Of a stretch of DNA of 64,000 nucleotides, positions 7,759-61,526 are shown piece after piece. Under the pieces are notes generated by a model that searched no databases, had not been told where the DNA came from, and was given only the letters and a program-made list of their open reading frames with translations. Both the position numbers and the translations under genes were made by a program. Where the stretch lies: contig NC_086108.1 of assembly GCF_963921235.1 (NCBI RefSeq), forward strand, positions 26,474,001 through 26,538,000, written 5' to 3'. Source of the stretch: Mobula hypostoma (taxonomy: Eukaryota). Each line of letters opens with the position of its first letter. The stretch's first letter is position 1.

Positions 7759-7794
7759 AGTCCTGACGAAGGGTCTCGGCCTGAAACGTCGACT
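7759..7794 (+). ncRNA. Minimal type I hammerhead ribozyme (Penelope-type)
   Basis: AGUC/GACU helix I, CUGACGA core, helix II GGGU-CUCG-GCCU, GAAA, palindromic ACGU helix III. Predicted GUC cleavage after 7790. Confidence 0.8.
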
Positions 7795-7859
7795 GCACCT
7801 CTTCCTATAGATGCTGCTTGGCCTGCTGCGTTCACCAGCAACTTTGATGTATGTTGCTT
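7760..7859 (+). mobile_element. 100-bp Penelope-tail mini-insertion consisting of a hammerhead plus tail
   Basis: Near-identical to the end of the Penelope copy at 43369-43466; flanked by the 9-bp duplication GAATTAAAA (7751-7759 / 7860-7868). Confidence 0.85.
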
Positions 7860-8760
7860 GAATTAAAACATTTGTTTCTTCCTGAGATGATGTGCTGTTA
7901 TCCATTGGTGTTAGATTGGGAGGAGACAGTATGCCAAAACCCCACTCTCCCGCTACCTCAGGAGAGATTGGGAGATGGGAAAGGGGTTCATGGCTACACC
8001 AGGCTGCAGAGGTTGGGTGGCTCTGCTACTGAGTCAGAGCGGAGGGAGGTGGAGAACAACCAGAGGTGGTGGGGCAGGAGAGGAGAGGAGCAACCTCACT
8101 CTAAGGACCAATAACCAAAAATGACTGGAGAGAAGGGCTGCAGGGAAAGTTGGAGACATGGAGTGAGGGTAGGGTGGGATAGTAATGGAACCGGAAAGAG
8201 AGAGAGCAAACCAGCAGAAGATATGGGGTTGTCGGAATAGTTTTGGGAATTTAGAACTGGGAAAATATAAAGGTGAAAACCTGTTCAGGACTAAAAACAT
8301 TCGACTGTCATGCTATGTTAGCACTGGTCCTGCATGTACACATACATGTACACAAAAGAACACAGATATTACACTAAAATGCCTCTTTCTAAATCTTCTG
8401 CAGCTTTGCATTCACACGGTTGCCACATGACTTCATTGGGATTGTACTTATTATCTGCAATAAATGCTGAAAACAACTTAATTACCTCATAATTGATCGC
8501 ATTATTAGTGTAATTAATCAATGAAACCTGGGAGAACACAGGTAAGCATTGCAGGTTGATGGGAATAGAACAGGAAAATGCTGTAATAGTGTAACATAAG
8601 GTGGGTCTTGAGAAGGCTAAGATCGATCGTTTATGGTCCTGACATAGAAATGTCCATTCTGTATTGCACTAGCATTGCTTTCAGCTATGACAAGAAAGTT
8701 GAAGGTATTTTCTTTCCATAATTGCTTCTAGACCTTTTCCTATACACCTAAACATCAGCT

Positions 8761-9064
8761 GGGGTGCCACGGTAGCAGAGTCGTTAGTGTGATCCCATTA
8801 TAGGTCAGGTGACGGAGTTCAGAGTTCATTACTGCTTCCTCTGTAAGGAGTCCCCTTGGAATACATGGGTTTTCTCTGGGTCCTCCGATTTCCTCCCACA
8901 ATCTAAAGACATGCCATGTAGATTAATTGGTCATTGTAAATTGTCCCGTCATTAGATGAGGGTTAAATTGGGGTTGTCAGGGGTTGCTGGGCAGTGTGGC
9001 ACAAAGGGCCAGAAGGGCCTATTCCATGCTGTATCTCCAAATAAAAATAAATAAAATAAAATAA
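8761..9064 (+). mobile_element. tRNA-derived HE1/V-SINE-like SINE
   Basis: tRNA-like head, V-domain-like TGGGTTTTCTCTGGGTCCTCCGATTTCCTCCCACAATCTAAAGAC, CR1-like tail GGGCCAGAAGGGCCTATTCCATGCTGTATCT and an (AAATA)n end. A partial second copy follows at about 9075-9250. Confidence 0.8.
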
Positions 9065-9270
9065 CTCTCTTGTGCCTGTGGTGTAGTTAATTGAGATGCT
9101 CTCTGACATTACCAAAGACCTAGGATCATCCTGAGTGGAGCCTACATGTTCTCCCAACTATGACATTGGTTTCCTCCAAGTGCTCTGGTTTCCTCACACA
9201 TCCCAAGAGTGCACAGATTGTCCCCAGTGAGTAGGTGAATGGTAGAATATAGGAGATGTTTATAAGAATG

Positions 9271-9900
9271 TTCAAAGTTCAAAGTAAATTAATTATCAAA
9301 GCAACACTTTCAGTACGCTGGATGAACTCAGCAGGTCGGGCAACATCAGTCAGAAACGATGAGTCGACGTTTTGGGCCGGAACGCTTTGTTCGTTTGATC
9401 TTTTACAGCATCTGCAGACTGTTTTGTATTTAAAATTAATTATCAAAGTATGTATGTTACCTTACACTAACTTGAGATTCATTTTATTGCAGGCATTTAT
9501 AGGATAAAAAGGAAATAGAATAGAATTTCATGAAAAACTATATATAAACAGGCAAAGAATAACTAACAATTAATAAGCAAAAGAAGACGAACTGTGTAAA
9601 TAAAAAAATAATACTGAGAACAAGAGTTATAAAGAGTCCTTGAACATAAGTCTGTATGTTTGAGTAGTGGTGATTGAAGTTATCCAAGCCTGTTCAGTAG
9701 CCTGATGACTGTAGGGTAATAACTCTTCTAGAACCTGATAGTATGGAACCTCAGACTTCGGTATCTCCTGCCCGGTGGTAGTAGTGTGAAGAGGGCATGG
9801 TCTAGATGGTGGGGCTCTTTGATGATGGTTGTTGCTTTCTTGTGACAGTTAAATAAATTCTGGGGAGGGCTTTGGCTATGACAGGCTGGTCTGCATCTAC
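9271..9900 (-). mobile_element. Rex1-type LINE 3' fragment interrupted by a Penelope-tail mini-element (9302-9432)
   Basis: TTCAAAG tail and Rex1 3' UTR. The insert is bounded by the 16-bp duplication AAATTAATTATCAAAG (9286-9301 / 9433-9448). Confidence 0.75.
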
Positions 9901-10299
9901 CCCTTGTATGAAGAATAAAACATGGGGATTAATGTTGTGTTAGTATAAATAGTTGGTATAGCATGATAGCGGAAGATATGACTGAATAGGCAATGCCCAG
10001 CATTCAACGAAGTAAGACAGTTTACAAAAGATAAGTAGTCCTTTATAGGGATCAGAAACAAATAGGTAAAATGGTTCATCTGTGGTCTCTATGAGGAGGA
10101 AGTAAAGATTGATTTAATCCAAGGAAGAGGTTCATAAATTTGCTTGGAAGGGCGGTAAACCAGAGATTCTTGGAGTTCAGTAGAAGAGACCCTAGCAATA
10201 AAGTATGAGGTAAACAGAAGAAAAACACAAAAATGAACTATAATAGACATGTAACATGGAAAAGATTACTCATAAATTACTCTAATCCTATTTACAGAT

Positions 10300-12084: not shown

Positions 12085-12335
12085 CAGAAAACAAAAATGG
12101 TGGAAAAACTCAGCAGGCCAGTGAACATTTGTGGAAAGGGAAACGGTTTCATCAAAGAATCTGCTGGAAGAACTCAATGGGTCAAGCTGCATCTGTGGAA
12201 GGAAAGGAATGTCAAGATTTCGACCCAAATCATCAACAATTCCTTTTGTTGCAGAGATGCTGCCTAACCTGAGGAGTTCACCCAGAATCGTGTTTGTTGC
12301 TCCAGTTCCAAAATCTTCAGTCTGTTGCCTCTTCA
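12085..12335. mobile_element. Decayed Penelope-tail fragments in inverted arrangement
   Basis: GGAAGAACTCA...GCATCTGTGGA... followed by CAGAGATGCTGCCTAACCTGAGGAGTT...TGTTTGTTGCTCCAG, resembling the younger palindromic copies. Confidence 0.55.
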
Positions 12336-13955: not shown

Positions 13956-14119
13956 TGCTGATACTTGAATGAATGTTTGTAATTATACTTTGCAGAAAGG
14001 AAGGTGGTTGTTTGAAATCAATCATCCCTACTCCCAAAAATGATTACAGAGTAGGACTGTCTTCATCTTCATTAATGACTATCTCTCCATCAAAAAGTCA
14101 CAATTATACACTGTTCATT

Positions 14120-17923: not shown

Positions 17924-18644
17924 CTCTATTATTATTTTTTTTTTTGTTTTTGGCACAGTTTGTCTTCTTTTGCACATTGCTTGTTTGTCGGTATTTGTGT
18001 ACAGGTTTTAATTTATTCTATTGTATTCTTCGTTGTACTGTGAATGCCTAAAAGAAAGAGAATGTCAGTGCAGAATATGGTGACATCCTATACAGTAGAT
18101 GTACTTTGTACTTTGATAATAAATTTCCTTTGAACTTTGAATAAGGCTGCAAATTACATTTTTTAAACATGAGGACCAATTATTAGTGAAGTTAGGAAGC
18201 AGAATATGTGAGGAATCAGGGCAGGAGTTGGCCAATTGGACCTTTAAATCTGCTGCAGCATCCATCAAGATGACAGCTGAACTTTTAACTCAATGCCATT
18301 TCCCTGTACTATTTCTTATCTCTTGATTCCCTTAATATACAGAAATGTTCCTACTTTTCTTTTGAATGATATACCCCATTACCTTAACCATAATTCCAAA
18401 GACTCACCAGTCTCTGTGTGAAGGAATTTCTCCATGTCTCAGTCCTGAAGAGCCTGCCCCTTATCTTGAGATTGTAGCCCCTGGTTCTGGACGACTCAGC
18501 CCAGGGTAATAGCTTTGAAATACTTCTCTGCTTAAGCCCTGTAAAATTTTTCTAAGTATTGATGGGATGTCCTCCCATTCTTCTGATCTCTAGTGCTATT
18601 ATGTATTCTTAAGAGCTTAATGTATGAGTGGTGTTTGATTTCTC

Positions 18645-20129
18645 TGGGCCTGACAGACATTTTCAACATCTCCCTTAGTCAAGCCATTGTTCCCGGATGC
18701 TTCAAAACCTCCACAATCATCCCTGTAGCAATGAAATCAGCGGTAGCCTGTCTGAATGATTACCATCCCGTTGCCCTGACCCCCATAGTGATGAAATGTT
18801 TTGAACAGCTTGTCAAGCCTCATATCACAGCCAGCCTCCCCTCATCGCTGGGTCCTCTACAGTTTGCTTATTGTCCAAATCGCTCTACGGAGGATGCAAT
18901 ATCCACCACACTGCACACAGTTCTCTCTCACTTGGACAACAAAGACACTTATGCCAAAATCCTGTACATTGATTTCAGTTCAGAGTTCAATACCATCATC
19001 CTGCAGAAACTAGTGGAGAAACTGTTGCTGCTTAGCCTTAGCACTGCCATGTGTCGCTGGATTCTGGATTTCTTGACAGAGAGACCACAGTCAGTCCGTG
19101 TTGGAGGGAACATCTCTGATTCCATCACACTGAGCACTGGATCCCCACAAGGCTGTGTGCTTAGCCCATTGCTGTTTACACTGCTAACATATGACTGTGC
19201 GGCCAGATTCAAGGAGAACCTGATCATTAAATTTGCTGATGATACCACAGTGGTGGGACTCATCAGCAAAAATGATGAAACAATGTACAGGGAGGAGGTC
19301 AAACACCTAGAGAGCTGGTACAGTGATAACAACTTGATGCTTAATGTCACCAAAACCAAGGAGATGATCGTTGATTTCAGACGGTCTCAGCCTGAGCAAC
19401 ACCCCTCAGTATCAGTGGAGAGAGTGGAAAACATCAAGTTCCTTGGGGTGCAGATCTCAGACAATCTCACCTGGTCCAGGAACACAACTGGGATTGTGAA
19501 ATGGGCCCAGCAGAGATTGCACTTTCTGAGGAAGCTTAAACAAGCATCACTCCCCAGTGACATCTTAACTACATTCTACAGAGGCGTGGTTGAGAGTGTG
19601 CTGACCTTCTGCATCACAACCTGGTACTCCAGCTGCAGTGCTGTTGACAAAAAAGCCTTGCAGAGGGTGGTTAGGGGAGCAGAGAAGGTTATTGGGGTCT
19701 CCCTACCTTCTGTCCAAGAACTCTTTCAGAGTCGATGCCTCCAAAAGACACGGTACATCATTAAAGAGCCCTCACACCCTCTCCATGAACTGTTTGTTCT
19801 TCTGCCATCAGGCAAACGTTACAGGAGCATCAAAACTAAAACCACAAGGCTACTAAACAGCTTCCTCCCACAGGCAGTCAGACTGCTAAATAGCTGCTCC
19901 ACCTGACTCTGCTTTGGACACTTTTAACTTGTACTGGACACTTATAACTTGATTTTAACTGACATGTGGCTGTTGTGTTTTACTATTTATTGTTATGTTT
20001 ATTATTTAGTGTTGCATTTGTTATGTTATGATTGCACTGCTCCTGGGAAACGTTGTCTCATTCTGCCCTGCAGAGCTGAATGTACGGTTAGAATGTCAAT
20101 AATGTTTTTTGAATCTTTGAATCTTGAAT
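18645..20129 (+). mobile_element. Young 5'-truncated Rex1/Babar LINE with an open RT frame (ORF 18593..19906)
   Basis: About 420 uninterrupted codons: [57 protein letters not shown]. (TTGAATC)n tail at 20109-20129. Confidence 0.92.
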
Positions 20130-20313
20130 GAATCTGTACTCAATGGAGTTCAGAAATATGTGTAAGTATCTCAATGAAACTTAGCAGATACTGAAAGGCC
20201 TGTACAGAGTGGCATGGAACGGATGTTTTCATTTGTAAGAGAGTCTATGATATGAGGTCACAGCACTATCATAAAAGGATGAGAAGTGGAATTTTTTCAG
20301 CAGAGAATGGTGA

Positions 20314-23300
20314 CCTGACAAGGGACGCCCACGGTGACCGGGTCTCTGGCACTGAGCCTGGCGCTGTTGTGCAGGAGGGAAGGAGAGAGAAGAGAAATGC
20401 GGTCGTCATGGGGGATTCGATAGTCAGAGGAACAGATAGGAGATTCTGTGAGCCTGATAGAGATACCCGCATGGTGTTTTGCCTCCCAGGTGCCAGGGTA
20501 CGGGATGTCTCGGATCGGGTCCAGAATCTTCTGAAGGGAGAGGGTGAGCAGCCAGTTGCCTTGGTGCATGTTGGTACCAATGACATAAATAGGAGAAGGG
20601 AGGAGGTCCTGAAGAGAGATTTCTGGGAGTTAGGAAGGAAGCTGAAAAGTAGGACCTCCAGGGTAGTAATCTCGGGATTGCTACCTGTGCCACGTGCTAG
20701 TGAGGGCAAGAATAGTAGGATCAGGCAGATGAATGCGTGGCTCAGAAACTGGTGCAGGGGGCAGAGCTTCAGATTCTTGGATCACTGGGATCTCTTCTGG
20801 GGGAAGTACGACCTGTTCAAAGGGACAGGTTACACCTGAACCCGAAGGGGACCAATATCCTGGCGGGAAGGTTTAATAAAACTGTTAGGGAGGGTTTAAA
20901 CTAATTTGGCAGGGGGATAAGAACCAGAATGATAGAGCAGAGGAAGGGGAAAACAGAAATAAATCTAAGGTAGTGAGCAGTAAAGATGTCAGGAAAGACA
21001 GGCTGGTGATGGGGCAAATTTGTAGCCATTGGGATGAGTTGCAGTGCAATAAAATTTCAGTGAAATCAAAGCAAAAAGTACCAAATACTGGTCTTAAGGT
21101 TTTATACTTAAATGCACCCAGCATAAGGAATACGGTGGATGATCTTGTCGTTCAGCTACAGATTGGCAGGTATGATATTGTGGCTATCACTGAGACGTGG
21201 CTAAAGGATGCATGTCTCTGGGAGCTGAATGTCCAAGGGTACACGGTGTATTGGAAGGATAGGAAGGTAGGCAGAGGGGATAGCGTGGCTTTATTGGTAA
21301 GAAATGATATCAAGTCATTAGAAAGACGTGACATAGGATCGAAGGTGCAGAATCTTTATGCGTTGAGCTAAGAAATCGCAGGGGTAAAAGGACCCTGATG
21401 GCAGTTATATACAGGCCTCCAAACTGCTGCAGTGATGTGGACTACAAATTACAACAGGAAATAGAAAAGGCTTGTCAGAAGGGCAGTATTATGATAATTG
21501 TGGGGAATTCTAACATGTGAGTGGATTGGGAAAATCAGGTCGGCACTGGATCTGACACTAGCACTGGCACTGGAGAATTTGTAGAATGTCTGCGAGATGG
21601 CTTTTTAGAACAGCTTGTTGTTGAGCCCACTAGGGGATCGGCTGTACTGGATTGGGTATTGTGTAATGAACCGGAGGTGATTAGAGAGATTGAAGTGAAG
21701 GAACCCTTAGGAGGCAGTGATCATAACATGACTGAGTTCATTGTGAAATTTGAAAAAGAGAAGTCGAAATCCGACGTGTCGGTAATTCAGTGGAGTAAAG
21801 GAAATTATAGTGGCATGAGAGAGGAACTCGCCAAAGTTGACTGGAAAGGGACACTGACAGGAAGGACGGCAAAGCAGCAGTGACTGCAGTTCATGCGAGA
21901 AGTGAGAAAGGTGCAAGACAGGTATATTCCTAAAAAGAAGAAATTTTCGAATGGAGAAAGGATGCAACCGTGGCTGACAAGAGAAGTCAAAGCCAAAGTT
22001 AAAGCAAAGGAGAGGACATACAAGGAAGCAAAAATTAGTGGGAAGACAGAGGATTGGGAAGTTTTTAAAAGCTTACAGAAGGAAACTAAGAAGGTCATTA
22101 AGAGGGAAAAGATGAACTATGAAAGGAAGCTAGCAAATAATATCAAAGAGGATACTAAAAGCTTTTTCAAGTATATAAAGAGTAAGAGACAGGTGAGAGT
22201 AGATATAGGACCGATAGAAAATGATGCTGGAGAAATTGTAATGGGAGATAAGGAGATGGAAGAGGAAATGAATGAGTATTTTGCATCAGTCTTCACTGAG
22301 GAAGACATCAGCAGTGTACCGGACAGTCAAGGGTGGCAGGGAGGAGAAGTGTGCATAGTCACAATTACGACAGAGAAAGTACTCAGGAAGCTGAATAGTC
22401 TAAGGGTAGATAAATCTCCCGGACCAGATGGAATGCACCCTCGTGTTCTGAAGGAAGTAGCTGGGAGAATGCGAAGGCATTAGCGATGATCTTTCAAAAG
22501 TCAATAGATTCTGGCATGGTTCCGGAGAACTGGAAGATTGCAAATGTCACTCCGCTATTTAAGAAAGGGGCAAGGAAGCAAAACGGAAATTATAGACCTG
22601 TTAGCTTGACATCGGTGTTTGGGAAGTTGTTGGAGTCGTTTGTCAAGGATGACGTTACGGAGTACCTGGAGGCATATGACAAGATAGGCAGAACTCAGCA
22701 TGGATTCCTTAAAGGAAAATCCTGCCTGACAAACCTATCACAATTTTCTGAGGAAATTACAAATAGGTTAGACAAGGGAGATGCTGTGGATGTTTTATAT
22801 TTGGATTTTCAGAAGGCCTTTGCAAAGGTGCCACACATGAGGCTACTTAACAAGATAAGAGCCCATGGAATTATGGGAAAGTTACATACATGGATAGGGT
22901 GTTGGCTGATTGGCAGGAAACAGAGAGTGGGAATAAAGGGATCCTATTCTGGTTGGTGTTCCACAGGGGTCCGTGTTGGGGCCCCTTCTTTTTACGTTGT
23001 CCATCAACGATTTGGATTATGGAATAGATGGCTTCTACCTACGTTTGCTGATGATACGAAGATAGGCGGAGGGGCCAGTAGTGCTGAGGAAACTGAGAGT
23101 CTGCAGAGAGACTTGGATAGATTGGAAGAATGGGCAAAGAAATGGCAAATGAAATACAATGTTGGAAAGTATATGGTTATGCACTTTGGCAGAAGAAGTA
23201 AACCGGCAGACTATTATTTAAATGGGGAGAGAATTTAAAGTTCTGGGATGCAACGGGACTTGGGAGTCCTCATGCAGGATACCCTTAAGGTTAACCTCCA

Positions 23301-24009: not shown

Positions 24010-24220
24010 AAACACAAGATATTCTGCAGATGCTGGACATCCAAAGCAACACACGCTAAATGCTGGAGGAACTCAGCAGGTCAGGCACCATCAATGGAAA
24101 TGAACAAACAATGAATGTTTCAGGCCGAGACCCTTCATCAGGATTGGAAAGGAAGGGAAAGGCACCAGAATAAATAGGTAGGAGGGGAAGAAGGTTAGCT
24201 GGAAGGTGATAGGTGAAGAC
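24010..24220 (-). mobile_element. Older Penelope tail fragment with a degenerate hammerhead
   Basis: Minus strand reads CTGATGAAGGGTCTCGGCCTGAAACAT (about 24113-24145), followed by the tail. Confidence 0.75.

Positions 24221-25180: not shown

Positions 25181-25243
<63 letters not shown>
25181..25243. repeat. (TA)n(CA)n compound microsatellite
   Basis: Directly visible. Confidence 0.97.
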
Positions 25244-27950: not shown

Positions 27951-28097
27951 ATTTCGAGTCAAAATCCCAGATCAGCACTGAGGAGTGACCTGACGTGTTG
28001 TGTCCTTACCAAGGAGAAAAAAAAGATTCTGACTATTAAGTTATCTTAGCTTCTCATAATTGTATATACCTCTGTCTGGTCATCCATCAGTCCTGAT

Positions 28098-28560
28098 AAC
28101 ACACATCAAAGTTGCTGGTGAATGCAGCAGGCCAGGCAGCATCTCTAGGAAGAGGTACAGTCGACGTTTCAGGCCGAGGCCCTTCGTCAGTACTAACTGA
28201 AAGAAGAGCTAATAAGAGAATTGAAAGTGGGAGGGGGAGGGGGAGGGGGAGATCCAAAATGATAGGAGAAGACAGGAGGGGGAGGGATGGAGCCAAGAGC
28301 TGGACAGGTGATTGGCAAAAGGGATATGAGAGGATCATGGGACAGGAGGCCTAGGGAGAAAGAAAAGGGGAAGGGAGGAAACCCAGAGGATGAGCAAGGG
28401 GTATAGTGAGAGGGACAGAGGGAGAAAAAGGAGAGAGAGAAAAAGAATGTGTATATATAAATAAATAACGGATGGGGTACGAGGGGTACGAGGGGGAGGT
28501 GGGGCATTAGCGGAAGTTTGAGAAGTCAATGTTCATGCCATCAGGTTGGAGGCTACCCAT
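28098..28560 (-). mobile_element. Young Penelope 3' fragment (EN C-terminus + 3' UTR + hammerhead tail)
   Basis: Minus strand encodes GSLQPDGMNIDFSNFR*, then a pyrimidine-rich UTR and a hammerhead at 28159-28194 with a helix I mismatch. Confidence 0.9.
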
Positions 28561-37453: not shown

Positions 37454-37627
37454 AAACAAAAGAAAATCTGCAGATGCTGGAAATGCAAACAGCACACTCA
37501 CTGGAAAAAAGTACTCAGCTTTTTCTCTCCAGTCCTGCCGAAGGGTTTTGGCCCAAAACGTCGACTGTGCCTTTTTCCATAGATGCCGCCTGGCCTGCTG
37601 AGTTCCTACAGCATTTTGTGTGTGTTG
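37454..37627. mobile_element. Older Penelope-tail mini-element (inverted tail piece + degenerate hammerhead tail)
   Basis: AGTCCTGCCGAAGGGTTTTGGCCCAAAACGTCGACT at 37531-37566; TSD TCTCACA(T/A)TGAC at 37442-37453 / 37628-37639. Confidence 0.8.
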
Positions 37628-40449: not shown

Positions 40450-41240
40450 GCATAAGGATGCAAAAGAAAATTGGAGCAGGAGTATGCCATAATGCTCCTC
40501 AAGCCTGCTTTGCTATTAATCTGATCAGCCCTAGGTCTCAACTCCCCCTCTACGGCAGCTCCACATAGTCCTCAATTTCCCTATCTTTCATAAAATGTAT
40601 CTACCTCCACTTTAAATTTTTAAATACCCCCAGTGATACACCTTCCACAATCCTTCAAGGCAGGGAATTTGAGAGACTCACCATCCTCTGTGAGATTCTT
40701 TCAAACAATCAGTTTTGAATGACTATTCCATGCACTTTAAACTCCCCCTGTCTTGGAAATATACTGACCTCTACCCTATTATGCCTCTTTTACCATCTTA
40801 TATATTTCACTAAGACATCCCTCAATTTTTTAAAATTCCAATGAATACACACCTAACTTTTTCATCCAAACAACAGGAATTCTGCAGATCCTGGAAATTC
40901 AAGCAACACACATCAAAGTTGCTGGTGAACGCAGCAGGCCAGGCAGCATCTCTAGGAAGAGGTGCAGTCGACGTTTCAGGCCGAGACCCTTCGTCAGGGT
41001 CTCGGCCTGAAACGTCGACTGCACCGCTTCCTACAGATGCTGCCTGGCCTGCTGCGTTCACCAGCAACTTTGATGTGTGTAACTTTTTCATCCACTTGGG
41101 ATACAGGAACCTTTGCCAATCTGGAATTAGCCTCCTGAATCTTTCCCTGACCTGCTCCCATGTGCAGAGTTATGTCTGATCTGCCCAGCATACAATATAT
41201 TGCTACTCCTTGGTCATATTGTGTAAGGAAAGTACATCTC
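40450..41240 (-). mobile_element. Old CR1 3' fragment hosting the palindromic Penelope mini-element
   Basis: GGAGCAGGAGTATGCCAT...CTCAAGCCTGCT CR1 tail; sequence is continuous across the insert. Confidence 0.65.
40869..41079. mobile_element. Palindromic Penelope-tail mini-element (85-bp arms, 5-nt loop)
   Basis: 40906-40990 is the reverse complement of 40996-41080 (83/85); TSD TAACTTTTTCATCCA at 40854-40868 / 41080-41094. Confidence 0.9.
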
Positions 41241-41391
41241 CCAACTATGGTGTTTCTCAATGTGCAGATCTACTGATTCAACTTCCCACAATGGAAGTTT
41301 TATGTTGAGCATTGCATTATTTGGAGATGATCTGTCCTTTCCATCATGGATTTACTTTATTTACTTTTATGATGTGCTTTTCTGTTGGCAG

Positions 41392-41582
41392 AGAGTTTGG
41401 TCGATGGAAGGTAAATAATTTAGCAGTGGAAAGAAGAGACTTTTTGGGCTCAGATTTGCCTCTAGCTCCAGAGTTCATCAGAAATATCCGCTTGTTAGGA
41501 CGGAGACCAAGTCCACAACAGATAATCGATAATTTGATCAAGAAGTATGGCACACATTTCTTAATATCTGGAACACTTGGAG
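41392..41582 (+). CDS. BRINP3: Internal coding exon of a BRINP-family (BMP/retinoic acid-inducible neural-specific, MACPF domain) gene; BRINP3/BRINP2-like
   Basis: Translates (R)EFGRWKVNNLAVERRDFLGSDLPLAPEFIRNIRLLGRRPSPQQIIDNLIKKYGTHFLISGTLG(G), including the MACPF YGTH...LGG signature. Pyrimidine-rich acceptor ending CAG at 41389-41391 and GTAAAG donor at 41583. 191 bp, phase 2 to phase 1. Family call is firm; paralogue assignment is tentative. Confidence 0.93.
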
Positions 41583-42193
41583 GTAAAGTACACCAATTCT
41601 GATTTCAGAGCATTCGTAATGTTGCAGTTATGAATGAACAGCTGAGTGTGTTGTCTTGTCATCTTTATAGTGAATGCTTTTTGGGGTGGGTGCATTCCAT
41701 TTTGTGCATAATACTTTTGGATATTGTTTTCCTCTTAACTCCCTGACTCATATGGGCCAGGTGAGGAGAAAAGATATGATCGTATTCTAGATGTTGGTAC
41801 CAAGACCTCAGTCCTCAGCTGATTTAGTTGAGAACTCCAGCACTGACTGCCTTTGACAGGAATCAGAGTTGTAAAGGATTTTTATAGATGTCAAATGTAA
41901 CCCAAAACCCATACAATTCAGGGAACTCTTAAACCCCTTACCATCACTCTCAGCCTTAAATACACAAAACGACTTGGCCTCCAGAGCTTTCAGTGGCAAC
42001 AAGTTCCATTGATTCACCAGCTGAACAAATTCCTCCTCATTTCAATTTTAAAGGAATATCCTTTTATTCTGAGGCGCAGCCCTTGGTACCTAGACGTTCT
42101 TACAAATGGAAACATCCTCTCTATGCCAATTTTATTGAGGCCTTTCAGTTTCCATTAGATTTTAGTTTCAAATTAAAGTCAAATGATAATCTC

Positions 42194-43464
42194 TCTGACT
42201 CTCACAGCTATCTGGACTATTCCTCTTCTCACCCTGTCTCTTGCAAAAACGCCATCCCCTTCTCGCAATTCCTCCGTCTCCGCCGCATCTGCTCTCAGGA
42301 TGAGGCTTTTCATTCTAGGATGAGGGAGATGTCTTCCTTTTTTAAAGAAAGGGGCTTCCCTTCCTCCACTATCAACTCTGCTCTTAAACGCATCTCCCCC
42401 ATTTCACGTACATCTGCTCTCACTCCATCCTCCCACCACCCCACTAGGAATAGGGTTCCCCTGGTCCTCACCTACCACCCCACCAGCCTCTGGGTCCAAC
42501 ATATTATTCTCCGTAACTTCCGCCACCTCCAACGGGATCCCACCACTAAGCACATCTTTCCCTCCCCCCCTCTCTCTGCATTCCGCAGGGATCGCTCCCT
42601 ACAGAACTCCCTTGTCCATTCGTCCCCCCCATCCCTCCCCACTGATCTCCCTCCTGGCACTTATCCGTGTAAGCAGAACAAGTGCTACACATGCCCTTAC
42701 ACTTCCTCCCTTACCACCATTCAGGGCCCCAAACAGTCCTTCCAGGTGAGGCATCACTTCACCTGTGAGTCGACTGGGGTGATATACTGCGTCCGGTACT
42801 CCCGATGTGGCCTTTTATATATTGGCGAGACCCGACGCAGACTGGGAGACGGCTTTGCTGAACATCTACGCTCTGTCCGCCAGAGAAAGCAGGATCTCCC
42901 AGTGGCCACACATTTTAATTCCACATCCCATTCCCATTCTGACATGTCTATCCACGGCCTCCTCTACTGTAAAGATGAAGCCACACTCAGGTTGGAGGAA
43001 CAACACCTTACATTCCATCTGGGTAGCCCCCAACCTGATGGCATGAACATCGACTTCTCTAACTTCCGCTAAGGCCCCACCTCCCCCTCGTACCCCATCT
43101 GTTACTCATTTTTATGCACACATTCTTTCTCTCACTCTCCTTTTTCTCCCTCTGTCCCTCTGAGTATACCTCTTGCCCATCCTCTGGGTCAACCCCCCCC
43201 CCCGTCTTTCTTCCCGGACCTCCTGTCCCATGATCCTCTCGTATCCCCTTTTGCCTATCACCTGTCCAGCTCTCGGCTCTATCCCTCCCCCTCCTGTCTT
43301 CTCCTATCATTTTGGATCTCCCCCTCCCCCTCCAACTTTCAAATCCCTTACTCACTCTTCCTTCAGTTAGTCCTGACGAAGGGTCTCGGCCTGAAACGTC
43401 GACTGCACCTCTTCCTACAGATGCTGCTTGGCCTGCTGCGTTCACCAGCAACTTTGATGTATGT
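42194..43464 (+). mobile_element. Young 5'-truncated Penelope-like element (RT thumb + GIY-YIG endonuclease, frame open to 43072)
   Basis: DSHSYLDYSSSHP..SQFLRLRRICS..CxxxxCxxC..VIYC..LLYIGET..AEH..VATHFN; TSD TGATAATCTC at 42184-42193 / 43465-43474. Confidence 0.95.
43369..43404 (+). ncRNA. Minimal type I hammerhead ribozyme (intact), in the intron between the two BRINP exons
   Basis: AGTC CTGACGA A GGGTCTCGGCCT GAAA CGTC^GACT; predicted cleavage after 43400. Confidence 0.8.
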
Positions 43465-44009
43465 TGATAATCTCAAGTGTAAGCTCTCTTAAACACTCTT
43501 TTCCTCACAGCTGCATTAGCTTCCAAGATTATGTAGAACTTTTGTAACCATACTTAGAGTGAAGTGTCCTGTTTCCTGGAAGCTCTGGTTAGCACCAATT
43601 TATTTATTATGAAAGTGGTCAAATCGACTGAAATTATAGTAACTTCAAAAAGCTTAATTATTTAATCAAAGACATCATTAGACTGGAAAGAATGCAAAGA
43701 GGATTAACAAGGACTGAAGGTCTTGAGATTTCGGCAGAGGTTGGGCAGGCTTGGAATTATTGTTGGAACATGGGAGATTTCTCTGAGAAAAGGAATTAAA
43801 AAATAGAGGACATAGGTTTAAAATGAAGGATGAAAGAATTGGTATTGTTGAGGCAATTACAATAGCAGCATTTAAAAGCCATGTGGAAAAGTGCATCAAC
43901 AGGAAGGTTTTGCAGGGATGTCAACATGAATGAATTGGGCTGAAGGGCTTGTTTCCATGCTATATTGCTTAATAGCTATGACGCTTTAATCAACATGCAT
44001 TTGCATCTT

Positions 44010-49529: not shown

Positions 49530-51109
49530 GTTCACCCGTATGGGTCCTAGCTATGCCTGCCACCCGTATGGGTCCGAGCTATGCCTGCCTTTTTGTTGGG
49601 TTTGTGGAACAATCTATGTTCCGTGCCTATTCTGGTATCTGTCCCCCACTTTTCCTTCGCTACATCGACGACTGCATTGGCGCTGCTTCCTGCACGCATG
49701 CAGAACTCGTTGACTTTATTAACTTTGCCTCCAACTTTTACCTTGCCCTCAAGTTTACCTGGTCCATTTCCGACACCTCCCTCCCCTCACTAGATCTTTC
49801 TGTCTCTGTCTCTGGAGACAGTTTATCCACTGATGTCTACTATAAGCCTACTGACTCTCACAGCTATCTGGACTATTCCTCTTCTCACCCTGTCTCTTGC
49901 AAAAACGTCATCCCCTTCTCGCAATTCCTCCGTCTCCGCCGCATCTGCTCTCAGGATGAGGCTTTTCATTCTAGGACGAGGGAGATGTCTTCCTTTTTTA
50001 AAGAAAGGGGCTTCCCTTCCTCCACTATCAACTCTGCTCTTAAACGCATCTCCCCCATTTCACGTACATCTGCTCTCACTCCATCCTCCCAGCACTCCAC
50101 TAGGAATAGGGTTCCCCTGGTCCTCACCTACCACCCCACCAGCCTCCGGGTCCAACATATTATTCTCCGTAACTTCTGCCACCTCCAACGGGATCCCACC
50201 ACTAAGCACATCTTTCCCTCCCCCCCCTCTCTGCATTCCGCAGGGATCGCTCCCTACACAACTCCCTTATCCATTCGTCGCCCCCATCCCTCCCCACTGA
50301 TCTCCCTCCTGGCATTTATCCGTGTAAGTGGAACAAGTGCTACACATGCCCTTACACTTCCTCCCTTACCACCATTCAGGGCCCCAAACAGTCCTTCCAG
50401 GTGAGGCAACACTTCACCTGTGAGTCGGCTGGGTGATATACTGCGTCCGGTGCTCCCGATGTGGCCTTTTATATATTGGCGAGACCCGACGCAGACTGGG
50501 AGACGGCTTTGCTGAACATCTACGCTCTGTCCGCCAGAGAAAGCAGGATCTCCCAGTGGCCACATATTTTAATTCCACATCCCATTCCCATTCTGACATG
50601 TCTATCCACGGCCTCCTCTACTGTAAAGATGAAGCCACACTCAGGTTGGAGGAACAACACCTTATATTCCGTCTGGGTAGCCTCCAACCTGATGGCATGA
50701 ACATCGACTTCTCTAACTTCCGCTAAGGCCCCACCTCCCCCTCGTACCCCATTTTTTTATGCACACTTTCTTTCTCTCACTCTCCTTTTTCTCCCTCTGT
50801 CCCTCTGAATATACCTCTTGCCCATCCTCTGGGTCCCCCTCCCACTTGTCTTTCTTCCCGGACCTCCTGTCCCATGATCCTCTCGTATCCCCTTTTGCCT
50901 ATCACCTGTCCAGCTCTCGGCTCTATCCCTCCCCCTCCTGTCTTCTCCTATCATTTTGGATCTCCCCCTCCCCCTTTAACTTTCAAATCCCTTACTCACT
51001 CTTCCTTCAGTTAGTCCTGACGAAGGGTCTCGGCCTGAAACGTCAACTGAACCTCTTCCTACAGATGCTGCTTGGCCTGCTGCGTTCACCAGCAACTTTG
51101 ATGTGTGTT
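49530..51109 (+). mobile_element. Young 5'-truncated Penelope-like element, copy 2 (RT with YIDD + GIY-YIG; two frameshifts)
   Basis: ORFs 49553..50404 (MGPSYA..LFLRYIDDCIG) and 50433..50726. Near-identical to 42194-43464. TSD GAGTGCAAGTTTAA at 49516-49529 / 51110-51123. 28-bp tandem duplication at the 5' junction. Confidence 0.95.
51013..51048 (+). ncRNA. Hammerhead ribozyme copy with one helix I mismatch
   Basis: AGTCCTGACGAAGGGTCTCGGCCTGAAACGTC^AACT. Confidence 0.65.
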
Positions 51110-51772
51110 GAGTGCAAGTTTAAAGGAGATTTGCAAGGCAGTTACTTACTTTACACAGATAATGGTATACGTCTGTAACATGCTGCCAGGGACCTAGTGG
51201 AATCAGATATGACAGCATGTTTTAGAGGTACTTAAACAATCAGGTGATCCATATCAGATGGATTGTGAGAGTGCAGCTGATTGATCGTGCAGTGATTCAG
51301 TTGAGCATCCTATGCATGGAGGACTTCTCTTTTCTCACAGGCTTTCGAATGAGCATGTTTTCATCTTGGTGGGTTCAGTTCGTAGGTCCTGCACTGTAAA
51401 TTGCCCAGCGTGTACAGCTACTAGTGTAACTCAGTAAAAATATTTAATCGCATTACTCTGTTGTTCTTGCTCCACATGCCCACAACAGCCAGGAACAGAG
51501 GGATATAGACCATTTGCAAACAGATCAGATCAGTTAGATTGGAATCATGTTGGGCTGAAAGACCCTATTATTGCGCTGTACTGTTCTATGTTCTATATTT
51601 AGAGATAGGCATTTATTTCTGGTGATGATTTCGCTATGCTTTCCTCCAAGCTGGTGGGCTGTCATATCTAGCAAGGGTTTGTATGTGCCTTTACTGAGGC
51701 TGCTGGGAGACCAAGCAGTAGAATATCAAGTTTTTTATCTCAATGGCTGGGGAGATCTGGGCTGTTATTCAA

Positions 51773-52140: not shown

Positions 52141-52189
52141 AGTGAGTTAGCTGGAATCCAGAAGGAGCCAGTGAGTTTGTTTACACTGG

Positions 52190-52990: not shown

Positions 52991-54079
52991 CTGATATATG
53001 GTCTTGACCTAACCTACACATTTGGCCTCCACCAATACTGCTTCGCCCACCAAGTTTTTCCACCATTCTGTTTCTCACTCTGTCATAGGTAACCAGGCTG
53101 AATTTTCACCTCACTAACCTAGGAAGACTGATGTAACTGCAGCAGCAACCAAGTGAAGATCAGTTGAGCCAGCACACACCGGGGACTGAAAGTGCAAACG
53201 TCTTGGCATATGTTCTGTACAGCACACTGATCAGTGCCAAGAACCTGGAGATGTTGTTTTTATAGCCCATGAAGTGCTAGAAAAATAGTTTGCTGAGTGG
53301 CACCACTGCTGATGATCTGAGAGGGTGATTTGCTTCAATTAGATGTGGAGGATATTCTGCTTCCAGCTTTGTCAAAATCCATTAGTCCTGTGACTTATAA
53401 AACGTTCCTACAGTGCTTAACTTCTCTGCTAAAGCTCTCCAAATCAGTTAAATGATTGCAGATTTTGGCATTGTTCATTGACTCATGTGCACAAGAAGAA
53501 AAATTCCTGGCACACAAAGGGATGCTATTTAACAAACGCTGACTAAAACACGTATAACTAATTGGACTATTCCCAACTTCCACCTCCTACTGTAGCCCTA
53601 TAGATTATGAAACAGCAAATGCAATTTTTTAAACATGATGAGTGTTTATGCTGCCACCACCATTTTGTGTAGAAAATTCCTGACTCATGTTATAATGGTG
53701 AAAACAATATCTCAACTCCCCTTTCATTGTTTTGTCTGTTTCATGAAATATAGTTATCTCTGCTGAGAGAAGTTGGTCCTTTTTAATTGCCCAATCCAAG
53801 CTTCATATATATCTCCATTAAATCCTCACTGCATCTCCCTATTGCTCCAAAGGGAAAGCCCCAACAAGGTCATTCAATCACACTTGTGAAGAAAGTGATG
53901 CATAAAATATGAAAGAACATTAGAAGATGATTGAAACACTCATCCGCTTAGGCAGATCAACAGAGAGGTCGACTGAACCTACATTTCAGACCAATAATCT
54001 TCCGGTGTTTTGGCCATTTTAAAAATTGTTTTTTATCACTAAGCTTCTCCAACCCTACTTATGTACTTGCAAGATCTCC

Positions 54080-56001
54080 TCTTACTTACCCCTGGAACAG
54101 GACCCCACCGAAAAACATCAAACCATTGTCTCCCGTACCATCACTGCCCTTATCAACTCCAGAGACCTTCCATCCTCAGCCACTAAACTCATAATTCCCA
54201 CATCCCGTACTGCTCGGTTTTACCTCCTCCCCAAGATCCACAAGCCTGACTGTCCCAGCAGACCCATAGTTTCTGCCTGCTCCTGTCCCACCGAACTTGT
54301 ATCTGCCTACCTGGACTCCATTTTGTCACTCATAGTTCAGTCTCTCCCCACCTACATCCGGGATACATCCCATGCCCTCCACCTCTTCAATAACTTCCAG
54401 TTCCCCGGTCCCAGCCGCTACATTTTCACTATGGATGTCCAATCCCTATACACCTCCATTCCCCATGAAGAAGGCCTCAAAGCCCTCTACTACTTTCTGG
54501 ATAATAGACCTCACCAGTTCCCCACCACCACTACCCTCCTCCGGTTGGCGGAACTGGTTCTCACACTCAATAACTTCTCTTTTGGCTTTTCCCACTTCCT
54601 TCAGACCAATGGTGTAGCTATGGGAACTCGCATGGGCCCTAGCTATGCCCGCCTCTTCGCTGGTTATGTGGAACAATCTGTGCTCCAAACCTATTCTGGT
54701 ACTGCTCCCCAACTTTTCCTTTGGTACATTGATGACTACATTGCTGCTGCTTCCTGCACCCATGCTGAGCTCGTCAATTTCATCGACTTTACTTCTAACT
54801 TCCACCCAGCCCTCAAATTCACTTGGTCTGTCTCGGACACTTCTCTCCCCTTTCTCGATCTCTCGGTCTCCATCTCTGGAGACAGACTGTCCACTGACAT
54901 CTCCTGCAAGCCCACTGACTCTCATAACTACCTCAACTATACCTCTTCCCACCTGCCACATGCAAAAATGCCATTCCCTATTCCCAATTCCTCCGTCTCC
55001 GCCGCATCTGCTCCGAGGATGAGGTTTTCCATTCCAGGACATCTCAAATGTCCTCCTTCTTTAAGAATCGTGGTTTCCCTTCTGCTGTCATTAATGATGC
55101 CCTCACCCACATCTCCTCCATTTCCTGCACTTCGGCTCTCACCCCATCCTCCCGCCACCACAACAGGGATAGAGTTCCCCTTGTCCTCACCTACCACCCC
55201 ACTAGCATCCGGATCCAACACATTATCCTTCGCAACTTCCGCCACCTTCAACAGGACCCCACCACTAAGCACATCTTTCCTTCTCCACCCCCTCCGCCTT
55301 CCGCAGGGATCGGTCCCTCCGCGACTCCCTGGTCCACACGTCCCTCCCCACGGATCACCCACCTGGCACTTATCCCTGTAAGTGCAAGTGCTACACCTGT
55401 CCCTACACCTCCTCTCTTGCCACCATTCAGGGCCCCAAACAGAACTTCCAAGTGAGGCAACACTTCACTTGTGAGTCTGTTGGGGTCATCTATTGCATCC
55501 GGTGCTCCCAGTGTGGCCTCCTCTACATTGGTGAAACCCAACGCAGATTGGGGGACCGCTTCGTCGAGCACCTCTGCTCCGTCCGCCAAAACAGACAGGA
55601 TCTCCCGGTAGCCACCCACTTCAACTCTACTTCCCATTCCCATTCAGATATGTCCATACATGGCCTATCCCTATGTAACTCTGTCCCCTCCCCCAGCTGC
55701 CTACCTCCTCCCTCTTGGTTCCACCTCCTTCTACTACCCATTGTGTTTTCCCCTATTCTTTCTTCACCTTTCCTGCCTATCACCTCCCTGCCTCCCTTCC
55801 CCCACCCCTTTATCTTTCCCCTTACTGGTTTTTCTCCTGAAACCTACCAGCCTTCTCCTTCCCACCCTCCCCCCACCTTCTTTATAGGGCCTCTGCCCCT
55901 TCCCCCTGCAGTCCTGACAAAGGGTTCCGGCCCAAAACCTCGACAGATCTTTTCCACGGATGCTGCCCGACCTGCTGAGCTCCTCCAGCGTGTTGTGAGT
56001 G
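54080..56001 (+). mobile_element. Penelope-like element copy 3 (different subfamily; longest RT; frameshifts; EN C-terminus deleted)
   Basis: FYLLPKIHKP..RPIVSAC..TMDVQSLYTSIP..QTNGVAMGTRMGPSYA..WYIDD; VIYCIRC..LLYIGETQRRLGDRFVEH. TSD TTGCAAGATCTCC at 54067-54079 / 56002-56014. Decayed hammerhead at 55910-55945. Confidence 0.95.
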
Positions 56002-56379
56002 TTGCAAGATCTCCCTGCATCTTTGGCTGATAACATTGTTCAATGTCACTGCAGCACAGAAGCATGACGATTATATATGTTGCCTTGGAGCTCTAGGGCT
56101 CCAGTGGCAGGGCAGGGTTAATCCTCTCTTTCGATGCTGTCTATACAGAGTATGCACATTCCCCACCCATATTCTGAATGTTTGCAGATTGGTAGGATCG
56201 ATCACCCCTGCTGTGTAAGTGAGTGGTAGAATCTAGATAGAGGGGTGGGGGGAGGGAGGTTGAAGGAATGTTGGGAAATGCAACTATTATTGTGTTAGTA
56301 TAAAATGGGTGACTAATCCTCGGTGTAGACTCAATGGATTGAAAAATTTGACACAATTTCAAAGAAGGCATGCTGGTGA

Positions 56380-58300: not shown

Positions 58301-58309
58301 AAGATTGAT

Positions 58310-59462
58310 ATCTTGACTCTACCTCTTCCCACTCTATCTCTTGTAAAAATGGTATTCCCTTTTTTAGTTCCTTCACCTTCACTGCATCTGTTCACAGGAT
58401 GTGGCTTTCCATTCCAGGTCATCAGGGATGACCTCCTTCTTCAAAGAATGGGCTTTCCCTCCCTCCACTATTAATGCTGCCCTCACCTGCATCTCCTCCA
58501 TTTCTTTAAGAACCTCGCTGATCCCATCTTCCTGCTACCTTAGCAGTGATAGAGTTCCTCTTGTCCTTACCTACTACTCCATGAGCTTCTACATCCAACT
58601 CGTCACCCTCCGCAACTTCTGCCATCTCCAAAAGGATCCTACCACTAAACATATCTTCACCTCCCCTCTCCTGCTTTCTGCAGGGTTCATTCACTCTGGG
58701 AATCCCTCATCTATTCATCCTTCCTGGCACTTAACCCTACAGCCCGCCTAAATGCTACACCTGCTCATACACCTCTGCACTCACCTCCATCCAGGGCTGT
58801 AAATAGCCCTTCCGGGTGATGCAACACTTCACCTGCTGGGGTTGTCTATCATGTCTGGTGCTCTTGTTGCGCCTCCTCATTGTAAATTGGGGGGGGGTCG
58901 CTTTGTTGATTACCTCTGCATCATCCACCAAATGCAGAACTTCCTGGTGGCTAACATTTTAATTCCAATTTTCATTCCTGTTATGACATGTCAGTGCAAA
59001 GATGAGGCCATCCTCAGGGTGGAAGAGCAACACCTTATACTCTCTCTGGGTAGTCTCCATCTTGATGGCATGAAAATAAATTTCTCCTTCCAATGAAAAA
59101 AAAAAATCCCTCCCCTTCCCCTCTTCCTCTATTCCCCACTCTTCTCACCTGCCTATCACTTCCCCCCGGGTCCCCTCCTCCTTCATTTTCTTCTGTGGTC
59201 TAATCTCCTTTCCTATCAGATTCTTTCTTCTCCAGCCCTTTACCTGTCTCATCCATCCAGCTTCATCTATCACCTTCCACTCGCTCTAACTCTCCCTTTT
59301 TATTCTGGCATTTCCTCCTTCCTTTTTGGTCCTGAAGAAGGGTCTCAGCCTGAAACATCGACGGTTTATTGACTTCCATAGATGTTGGTGACCTGCTGAG
59401 TTCCTCCAGCATTTTGTATATGTTGCTTTGGATTTACAGCATCTGTAGAACTTCTCATGTTC
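58310..59462 (+). mobile_element. Old Penelope-like element copy 4 (decayed)
   Basis: ORFs 58401..58751 and 58842..59096 are homologous to copies 1-3; hammerhead relic GGTCCTGAAGAAGGGTCTCAGCCTGAAACATCGACG at 59328-59363. Confidence 0.85.
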
Positions 59463-60260
59463 GTATTTCAGCCTAATGGTACAACTGGAAGTTAGTCCTT
59501 CCAACAGAGTTGCATGAGCCAATGCTACCACCTATACATTGAAGGTACTATCAGAGAGGAAGAGATACTAAAGCTTTCTTTTGCAACTTGTGCATTCGCT
59601 TTTATCTTTATGCTACTTCATCCATGAGCTCAGTGGATGCAATGATTAACAACTTTCACAGAACTTAATGGCTACCATTGGTTTATGTTACTAGAAAGGC
59701 TCCTAAAGTTACTCCTAATGTGGAAATCTCATGGTTAATATCATTAATAAAAATTGTAAGGGAAAAGGAATATACTATTTGAGCTTAACTAAGTTCACAA
59801 GAGGAAAAGCGTACAAAATTATCTGTAATAGTTTTGAATGAAAATGGATATGGTCTATAAAAATATATGCACTAACAATTGGATTACTGAGATGAATAAG
59901 AATTTTGTCTCATATTACTCAACTATCGTTCCTTTGAAGTTAATTAGTGGAAAATCAACTCCCTTGTTGACTTACTTGCTTTGTGCTTGTGTTCTGTATT
60001 TACCCGCCTACAGAGAATCATAATGGAGATCAAATCCTGAACAATGCAGATTGATGTTTTAATCCTCCATGTTGTGGCACTGATTTATGATCCACTGTGA
60101 TGCTGGCATCCCCTGCTGTGAAGCAGGTAGAATCCAGCATGGCTGAGCAATGCAGTATATGTGATGCAACTGGTCTACTGTGGAATAATCGCATGATGCA
60201 ATATCCACTCTAAAGAAAGCTGTTTACTACCTTATTAATTCTAATATGCATTCATTCTTT

Positions 60261-60980
60261 ATAAGACCATAAGACACTGGAGCAGAATTAGGCCATTTGA
60301 CATATCCAGCCGGCTTCACTATTCCATCATGGCTGATTTATTATCCCTCTCAATCCATTATTCTGCCTTCTCCCTGTAACCTTTGATGCCAGAATTAATC
60401 AAGAACCTATCAACCTTTGCCTTAAATACACCCACTGACGTAGCCTGCACAGCCACCTGTGGCAATGAATTCCACTGATTCACCACTTCTGGCTAAATAA
60501 ACTTTTCCTCATCTCTGTTCTAAATGGGCATGCCTCAATTCTGAGGCCAAGCCCTCTGGTCCTAGACTCCCCTACTGTAGGAAACATCCTCTCCACATCC
60601 ACTCTATCTAGGCTTTTCAATATTCAATAGCTTTCCATGAGATCAAACCCACCCCCATTCTTCTAAACTCCAGTGAGTTCAGACCCAGAACCATCAAACA
60701 CTCCTAATATACTAACCTGTTCATTCCTGGGATCATTTTTTTGAATGTCCTCTGGACTCTTTCCAGTGCCAGCACAACTTTTCTCAGATGAGTGACCCAA
60801 AACTGCTCACAATACTCTAAGTATGGTCTGAAAAATGCTTTATGAAGACTCAGCATTCCATCCTTGCTTTTGTATTCTAGTCCTCTCAAAATGAATGCTA
60901 ATATTGTATTTCCCTTTCTCACCACCAATTCAACCTGCAAGTTAACCTTTAGTGAATCCCACACCAGGACTCCCAGGTCT
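60261..60980 (-). mobile_element. CR1 LINE 3' fragment
   Basis: ORF 60704..60964 LKVNLQVE..LEYCEQFW; (TCTTATGG)n tail. Confidence 0.88.
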
Positions 60981-61407
60981 CTTTATGAACTCAAGTTACC
61001 CACGATAAAGGGATCAATTTATGGGATCAATGTTATGCTCTTTAAGTTCTCTTCAACTAGCTAGCAGAAAACAGATTGTCATTACCATGTTAAGCAGACC
61101 AAGGTTATTCTGTGACAGAAATATAAGCTCAGAAGTTGTTGCAGGTGATTATTGTGGATGGATCTGTAAGAGCTCAACTAAAATAGTAGACAAAAGAATG
61201 TTAACACTCAGTGTTAAATATTAATGGGCTAACATGACCAATAGTAATTTGTAGGAATTTAAAGCAACCAGGTTCTACAGAGGCAGAGCCAACTGTGGGA
61301 ACAATCAGCAAACAACAGGAATTCTGCAGATGCTGGAAATTCAAGCAACACACATCAAAGTTGCTGGTGAACGCAGCAGGCCAAGCAGCATCTATAGGAA
61401 GAGGCGC

Positions 61408-61443
61408 AGTCGACGTTTCAGGCCGAGACCCTTCGTCAGGACT
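61408..61443 (-). ncRNA. Minimal type I hammerhead ribozyme (intact, minus strand)
   Basis: Reverse complement is AGTCCTGACGAAGGGTCTCGGCCTGAAACGTCGACT. Confidence 0.78.
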
Positions 61444-61490
61444 AACCCCTCCTCCAGCTTTCAAATCCCTTACTCACTCTTCCTTCAGTT

Positions 61491-61526
61491 AGTCCTGACG
61501 AAGGGTCTCGGCCTGAAACGTCGACT
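61491..61526 (+). ncRNA. Minimal type I hammerhead ribozyme (intact, plus strand)
   Basis: AGTCCTGACGAAGGGTCTCGGCCTGAAACGTC^GACT; predicted cleavage after 61522. Confidence 0.78.

Follow-up and report, generated by a model that had tools for sequence, protein, structure and literature searches.

What is the motif of 36 nucleotides (nt) that recurs on both strands of a 64,000-nt stretch of the Mobula hypostoma genome (NC_086108.1, positions 26,474,001-26,538,000, forward strand; assembly GCF_963921235.1)? An earlier note on this stretch, which in its full length is called the window in the following, had described the motif as a dispersed family of minimal hammerhead ribozymes which is located in the tails of Penelope-like elements (PLEs), exhibits covariation in its helix II and lies inside a neural gene. 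The analysis presented here indicates that the motif is very probably the minimal type I hammerhead of a very abundant PLE, for which self-cleavage as a dimer, likely aided by a protein, is predicted. As judged by its sequence, the repeated 36-mer is the minimal hammerhead motif already described for PLEs, and its self-cleavage is a prediction. Copies were compared within a sample of 464 kb, which is made up of the window and of two stretches of 200 kb each, one upstream of it on its own contig and the other on a different contig. This sample contains 49 copies of the full motif, of which one junction copy (L032:4259-4294) was dropped, leaving 48 aligned copies (41 of them distinct).

Read as RNA, the 36-mer consists of AGUC / CUGACGA / A / GGGU-CUCG-GCCU / GAAA / CGUC^ / GACU, with ^ marking the predicted cut. 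This is the order of a type I hammerhead with a full core, i.e., C3, U4, G5, A6, N7, G8 and A9, followed by G12, A13 and A14 and by A15.1, U16.1 and C17. Helix I comprises 4 base pairs (bp), or 5 if a U.G pair is counted, and helix II comprises 4 bp preceded by one unpaired A. Of helix III only the pair A15.1-U16.1 remains, which lies inside the palindrome ACGU. The extra A before helix II, which had been proposed in the earlier note, is well supported, as the unpaired nucleotide between A9 and position 10.1 is an A in 49 of 49 copies and as the register with the bulge pairs 92.1% of the helix II cells. The alternative register without the bulge (A12-U24) pairs only 74.8% of these cells and was rejected. 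The closing pair of helix II (10.1-11.1) is G.U in 20, G-C in 17 and another combination in 4 of the 41 distinct copies, and the loops found among the window copies are CUCG, UUUG, UCCG and CUCA.

A strict descriptor of minimal hammerheads (core, 0 or 1 bulged nt, helix II of at least 4 bp, palindromic helix III, helix I of at least 4 bp) accepted eight copies in the 464 kb, four of them in the window and four in the other 400 kb, and none in the reversed control. The accepted window copies are exactly the four sites that had previously been called intact (7759+, 43369+, 61491+ and 61408-), and all accepted copies contain ACGU. The core is intact in 21 of the 49 full-length copies. A 28-nt core of the motif occurs in the window without mismatch at 7763+, 40970-, 43373+, 51017+, 61412- and 61495+, with one mismatch at 28163- and with three mismatches at 24114- and 59332+, which amounts to nine matches as compared to none in 100 shuffles. 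Looser matching adds 37534+ and 55914+, so that all eleven sites listed in the earlier note are present, and the variant sites exist with the variants and loops described there. That list was nevertheless incomplete: a search with a tail profile, which was derived from 11 of the window copies and covers -40 to +66 relative to the predicted cut, revealed 18 relics in the window, 11 on the plus and 7 on the minus strand, most of which are cut short and decaying. The arm and the relics that had been missed are marked in Table 1.

The assignment to Penelope tails holds: an ORF with reverse transcriptase (RT) and GIY-YIG features lies upstream, 3′ ends are shared and direct hammerheads are found further upstream. 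In the window copies the 3′ end of the element comprises, in this order, the end of this open reading frame (ORF), which includes GIY-YIG, a ~300-nt spacer, the hammerhead of 36 nt and the tail. The ORF contains a YIDD box as well as GIY-YIG-like motifs and ends ~300 nt before the motif. Matches to GIY-YIG on the element reach E values of 0.0016 and 0.00081, and those to RVT_1 reach 6.6e-5 and 4e-5 in longer copies from the genome and 2e-7 in an older copy of the window. The ORF has 1313 homologues; the best 120 of them reach E 7e-244, and most of these carry PF00078 and some also PF01541. The best named homologue among the matches listed is a shark protein with 73% identity, and a sequence search of the PDB with the long PLE ORF gave no match. 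Alignment of older PLE copies of the window to the young family succeeds within the ORF (~78%), fails in the spacer and resumes at the first base of helix I.

The copies at 43373 and 51017 form the ends of stretches of 1.28 and 1.55 kb, whose identity to each other and to longer copies amounts to 96-97%. Among five longer copies identity reaches 98.4-98.9%; they share one 3′ end but differ in the point of their 5′ truncation, and two of them have a head-to-head inverted arm. Overall, identities range from 96.5 to 98.9% among the compared copies, whose 3′ end is common and whose 5′ ends vary. Besides those of the window, inverted pairs were found in L041 and L044. The 3′ ends lie at two places, either ~65 nt past the predicted cut (ending GATGTGTGTTG) or ~102 nt past it, i.e., 37 nt further, with the longer form being seen in the copies 40970-, 61412-, 24114- and 59332+. 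Six of the eight copies that reach the 5′ region contain a second, direct hammerhead upstream, whose cut site precedes the body of the element by 127 nt; the resulting unit measures 3515 nt. In three of these eight, the sequence extends into a preceding unit by another 445 nt or more, as in a tandem. As read from these copies, the upstream direct hammerhead together with the read-through of units is the arrangement of PLEs with pseudo-long terminal repeats (pLTRs) or in tandem.

The tail itself contains a block, AGATGCTGCC(T/C)G(G/A)CCTGCTG...CAGCA (43405-43467), which is retained in PLE subfamilies between which the spacers do not align. Its TGCTG and CAGCA can pair into a stem of 5-6 bp, and the 3′ ends are located just past a GT-rich run. 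From its sequence, this block is likely a protein-binding module or a module for the start of reverse transcription. Contigs of four of the 22 public runs that contain the element (Logan; the kind of run was guessed) exhibit T or C at 43392, which is position 11.1 of the motif, and the same four sets include a continuation into the long tail as well as opposite-strand joints near the hammerhead. They contain neither starts nor ends of molecules and do not cover the unique flank past 43475, and are therefore uninformative on expression or cleavage.

The family is both young and huge, as had been supposed before when it was called recently active, and this is evident from the genome counts as well as from the identities of the copies. 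The exact 36-mer occurs 32,886 times (16,386 + 16,500) in the 3.48-Gb genome, with no occurrence in the reversed control. For a 23-mer, 53,764 copies of the TG form and 10,887 copies of the CG form were counted genome-wide. The tail profile detected 90 relics in the 464-kb sample, which by our own rough scaling would correspond to several hundred thousand relics in the whole genome. This PLE family thus fills a visible share of a 3.5-Gb genome and is invisible to gene annotation.

The covariation of helix II that had been reported for these copies was not confirmed. With the structure proposed in the earlier note, 88.4% of the cells of the 48 copies are paired. However, no pair of helix II is changed on both sides in any of these copies, a change on both sides is found in only 1 of 328 cells of the whole structure, which is below the mean of the shuffled alignments, and the covariation score is 0.126 as compared to 0.139 in shuffles, with 435 of 500 shuffles scoring as high. 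The dinucleotide at positions 11.1-12 is TG in 28, CG in 11, CA in 10 and TA in none of the 49 copies, and therefore the older state is C11.1-G12. Judged by these dinucleotides, the variation in helix II is CpG decay. The two copies which had been read as a change from G.U to G-C (37531 and 55910) are of the CA type: they have the ancestral C11.1 but A12, so that the essential G12 is lost, and they carry other lethal changes in addition. The change from U.G to C-G at 28159- is a single copy, which also has a broken helix I. The essential G8 and G12 lie in two of the five CpG steps of the ancestral motif, and this explains why the core is kept in only 21 of the 49 copies and why only eight copies pass the descriptor. 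As a general warning, seeming covariation among copies of a transposon in a methylated genome can be CpG decay.

Within the terminal region, no other block is as well conserved across subfamilies as the 36-mer, which has a mean majority frequency of 0.887 (0.928 without CpG columns), as compared to 0.45 for the 6 nt upstream, 0.75 for positions +5 to +22 and 0.76-0.78 for the rest of the tail; these figures are subject to an ascertainment bias, since copies were kept only if their hammerhead could be aligned. Even as a figure biased by the selection of copies, this conservation across subfamilies speaks for a constraint on the master elements, together with the renewed alignment of older copies from helix I onward that was described above.

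Hammerheads of this kind have been known since 2014, and the Mobula family is at most a new member. A paper by Lunse, Weinberg and Breaker in RNA Biol 14:1499 is said to deal with minimal hammerheads in metazoan PLEs as well. No paper which names this family or a PLE hammerhead from a cartilaginous fish was found in the literature, although the lists in the supplement of PMC4209133 may name one. According to the accessible part of that paper (Cervera and De la Pena 2014, PMC4209133), to which all statements on it in this text are limited, the hallmarks of PLE hammerheads are a nucleotide that separates position 9 from position 10.1, palindromic positions 15.2-16.2 and a short helix I; they are located in both pLTRs, occur mostly as solitary truncated copies and are also found as pairs on opposite strands. 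The Mobula motif agrees with this description in its type I core, the unpaired nucleotide after A9, the helix I of 4-5 bp and the A15.1-U16.1 helix III within a palindrome, which implies an action as a dimer. It also agrees in its position in both terminal repeats of an element with RT and GIY-YIG and in its solitary or truncated copies and opposite-strand pairs. In contrast to the families of Schistosoma, which have a helix II of 7-8 bp, helix II of the Mobula motif comprises 4 bp, and the published closing pair is G-C whereas that of the young Mobula family is G.U. The copy number in Mobula is far above the ~4,000-9,000 copies of coelacanth and Xenopus (PMC4209133).

PAc, a Poseidon-type PLE of Anolis carolinensis with an optional 3′ tail of 30-40 nt and two internal start sites for RT (Frangieh 2024, PMC11167929), resembles the Mobula element in several respects. 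Both have a hammerhead at the junction of pLTR and unit and occur as tandem copies, the two 3′ ends 37 nt apart in Mobula match the tail of 30-40 nt, and in neither element is there a sign of cut RNA being used as the inserted template. However, the ORF of PAc starts inside the hammerhead, whereas in Mobula the frame that opens past the cut stops after 16 codons. Furthermore, the region in which RT would start is GT-rich on the sense strand in Mobula, and unlike PAc the Mobula family is known from its sequence alone. With non-LTR retrozymes, as far as the accessible parts of the respective reports reach (PMC7229834; 10.64898/2026.07.22.740005), the motif shares the type I order, a helix III so weak that two copies are required, and the kinship to pLTRs of PLEs. 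Retrozymes form short tandem arrays which give rise to circular RNAs, whereas those of Mobula are copies of an autonomous element and lie dispersed, either singly or in inverted arrangement.

If the motif acts as the minimal hammerhead of a PLE, the palindromic ACGU of two units, or of two RNAs, would pair to form helix III, and the strands of helix I would swap between the two copies, so that two active sites with a cut after C17 might arise. The copies in the window would be dead insertions, in which decay mainly affects the five CpG steps, and the young master would carry U11.1 and thereby a G.U closing pair instead of the older C11.1. This closing pair is at any rate compatible with massive amplification. 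The inserted copies would derive mostly from uncut RNA. This last idea follows from the absence of copies starting at the cut site, which is in agreement with both the 2014 description (PMC4209133) and the work on Anolis (PMC11167929). The 5′ end was readable for 29 of the 40 3′-anchored copies, namely those that lie away from the edge of their locus and have an identity of at least 86% to the young element. The starts nearest to the cut among these 29 copies are at -3 and +8. Relative to the upstream cut, the near-full-length copies L051 and L052 start at -8, a position inside the hammerhead, and at ~+55, and L045 starts at +128. The 5′ ends of full-length copies hence vary in position around the upstream hammerhead instead of coinciding with its cut site.

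In addition to the lack of covariation and the selection bias described above, several observations weigh against a catalytically active hammerhead. None of the Rfam hammerhead models gave a match over the window, neither at the gathering score nor at E<=10, and none matched a 91-nt stretch either; the check with hammerhead models envisaged in the earlier note was thus positive for the descriptor but negative for Rfam, whose models expect a real helix III. The closing pair of the young and most abundant family is G.U and not the canonical G-C, and most Pfam matches of the element itself fall below the curated cut-offs. In nearest-neighbour calculations, the minimum free energy structure of the monomer is an inactive rod of -11.7 kcal/mol, in which G5-G8 are paired with C15.2-C17, as compared to -6.8 kcal/mol for the hammerhead fold, and the strand-swapped active dimer reaches -12.9 kcal/mol as compared to -31.7 kcal/mol for an extended duplex. 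None of the 40 3′-anchored copies starts at the cut site, and of the eight long copies none of the five that could be resolved has its 5′ end there. Published minimal hammerheads of PLEs cleave poorly in vitro and do so only as dimers (PMC4209133). For the Anolis PLE, insertion in vitro was unaffected by hammerhead mutants and no ends at the cut site were seen in RNA-seq (PMC11167929).

Some of these points would be expected if the 36-mer were mainly a structured RNA, e.g., a hairpin, a protein-binding signal or an RT signal of the terminal module of the PLE, which has inherited the hammerhead core and shows little or no catalysis. Such a role gains from the inactive rod being more stable than the hammerhead and the extended duplex being far more stable than the active dimer, from the lack of inserted copies that begin at the cut site, from the conservation of the adjoining tail block and from the indifference of in vitro insertion to hammerhead mutants (Frangieh 2024, PMC11167929). 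A mere hairpin, however, does not need the unpaired CUGANGA and GAAA, and yet at core positions outside CpG steps the majority letter is held in a mean of 0.935 of the 48 copies, over several subfamilies with different loops. Moreover, other PLE hammerheads do cleave in vitro as dimers (PMC4209133) or together with a protein, as the hammerhead of the Anolis PLE needs the protein of its element for cleavage (PMC11167929). On balance, a structured RNA with little or no catalysis appears rather unlikely.

A further idea starts from the minimal hammerhead and extends it. The swap to G.U in the master would have removed one of the two CpG steps whose decay kills the core, after which more than 50,000 copies arose, and the missing starts at the cut site together with the copies that run through into a second unit would fit an RNA that is cleaved and ligated into a circle of 3515 nt, which is then copied round. 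An RNA circle that is cut at two hammerheads and ligated has already been proposed (Cervera and De la Pena 2014, PMC4209133). The alternative is that linear, uncut RNA serves as the template, and the circle is at present a doubtful scenario. The tens of thousands of young copies of the Mobula family offer statistical power to distinguish between cleavage, circularisation and copying of PLE RNA without a cut.

It is very unlikely that the short copies (~100-140 nt) are a separate non-autonomous family, resembling short interspersed nuclear elements (SINEs) or retrozymes, which borrows the machinery of the PLE, rather than truncations. Many 5′ ends do lie at most ~75 nt upstream of the hammerhead or inside it, and a 2026 preprint derives animal retrozymes from pLTRs of PLEs, as far as its accessible part goes (10.64898/2026.07.22.740005). 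Yet the 5′ ends of the 3′-anchored copies spread continuously from -1523 to +8 without a single preferred start, and short and long copies are 96-100% identical. A retrozyme-like tandem array was also rejected for the window, as the nearest same-strand 28-mer cores are 7.6 kb apart, a spacing that was read from core matches with up to three mismatches and not from a tandem-repeat finder. Finally, a chance likeness to a hammerhead inside a repeat, for which the missing Rfam match and the missing covariation could be cited, is hardly credible and was rejected, as the published descriptor (PMC4209133) is matched by all letters of the core, by the bulged nucleotide and the palindromic helix III and by the position in the terminal repeats of a PLE; in addition, the strict descriptor accepted eight copies here and none in the reversed controls.

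Table 1. Copies and relics of the Penelope-like element in the window, and the gene exon among them. Positions are those of the window.
Feature	Position	Strand	Details
Intact minimal hammerhead	7759..7794	+	Predicted cut after C at 7790; short PLE tail copy ~7757-7864
Old tail relic	9303..9390	-	5′ part of hammerhead missing; missed in the earlier note
Three overlapping, very decayed tail relics	12093..12299		Inverted arrangement; missed in the earlier note
Decayed hammerhead of older PLE subfamily	24110..24145	-	Helix III ACAU, helix I broken, long tail; relic ~24010-24149
5′-truncated PLE copy	28097..28559	-	86% identical to young family; hammerhead 28159-28194 with C2.1->A and U10.4->C
Older tail relic	28564-28640	+	From profile search; missed in the earlier note
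Older tail relic	30704-30772	+	From profile search; missed in the earlier note
Relic of older subfamily	37527..37627	+	Hammerhead 37531-37566 dead (A6->C, G12->A); C11.1 retained
Head-to-head inverted tail pair	40904..41080	- and +	Minus arm 40904-41001 and plus arm 40996-41080, joined inside the hammerhead; minus copy (40966-) without 5′ strand of helix I; partial plus arm forms a palindrome with it and was missed in the earlier note
MACPF-domain exon of BRINP3-like gene	41309..41599	+	MACPF 31.1 bits (cut-off 21.5); PLE copies around it
5′-truncated PLE copy	42186..43467	+	Identity to longer copies 97%; GIY-YIG-like motifs at ORF end, stop near 43070; spacer of ~300 nt; intact hammerhead 43369-43404, predicted cut after 43400; tail ends 65 nt past cut
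5′-truncated PLE copy	49561..51110	+	C-terminal part of RT (YIDD) and GIY-YIG; hammerhead 51013-51048 with G1.1->A
Older PLE copy	54076..56004	+	ORF ~78% identical; RVT_1 and GIY-YIG matches; spacer cannot be aligned to young family; hammerhead 55910-55945 dead (G8->A, G12->A)
Relic of older subfamily	59323..59425	+	Hammerhead 59328-59363 with N7 = A, loop CUCA and helix III ACAU
Head-to-head inverted pair, minus arm	61309..61588 (arm 61309-61446)	-	Long tail; intact hammerhead 61408-61443
Head-to-head inverted pair, plus arm	61447-61588	+	Intact hammerhead 61491-61526, predicted cut after 61522

The neural setting of these copies, which the earlier note had named, is correct in that the window contains a MACPF exon of a BRINP3-like gene, a gene described as 'neural-specific'. 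The best matches of the frame of this exon are BRINP3-like proteins of sharks with 86-89% identity.

The head-to-head tail pairs listed in Table 1 are part of a wider pattern. Such pairs always consist of a minus copy followed by a plus copy, which are joined in or just before the hammerhead, and eight close pairs were seen among the first 100 genome rows listed. By analogy, the inverted pairs fit priming on both DNA strands, as it has been reported for the Anolis PLE (PMC11167929). The pair at 40904-41080 folds on either strand into a near-perfect hairpin of ~85 bp (-177.7 kcal/mol, z -23.6), which precedes the BRINP3-like exon by ~300 nt on the sense strand of the gene. A resemblance of this palindrome to mir-3926 in Rfam was rejected, as it reached 53.6 bits with a threshold of 82. 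Hairpins from inverted pairs could feed small-RNA pathways.

Another Rfam match, a mir-297-like one at 25175-25239 (44.7 bits as compared to 90), is an artefact of low-complexity (GT)n/(AT)n sequence. The window also contains retroelement ORFs that are unrelated to the PLE, at 18587-19903(+), 22414-23235(+), 5158-5748(-) and 20195-20836(+). These unrelated ORFs exhibit RVT_1 matches with E 1e-28 (together with an ALKBH8_N match) and E 9e-19 and a weak RVT_1 match on the minus strand, and they include a GDSL-lipase/OSK-like ORF of the kind that is found in some ORF1 proteins of long interspersed nuclear elements (LINEs).

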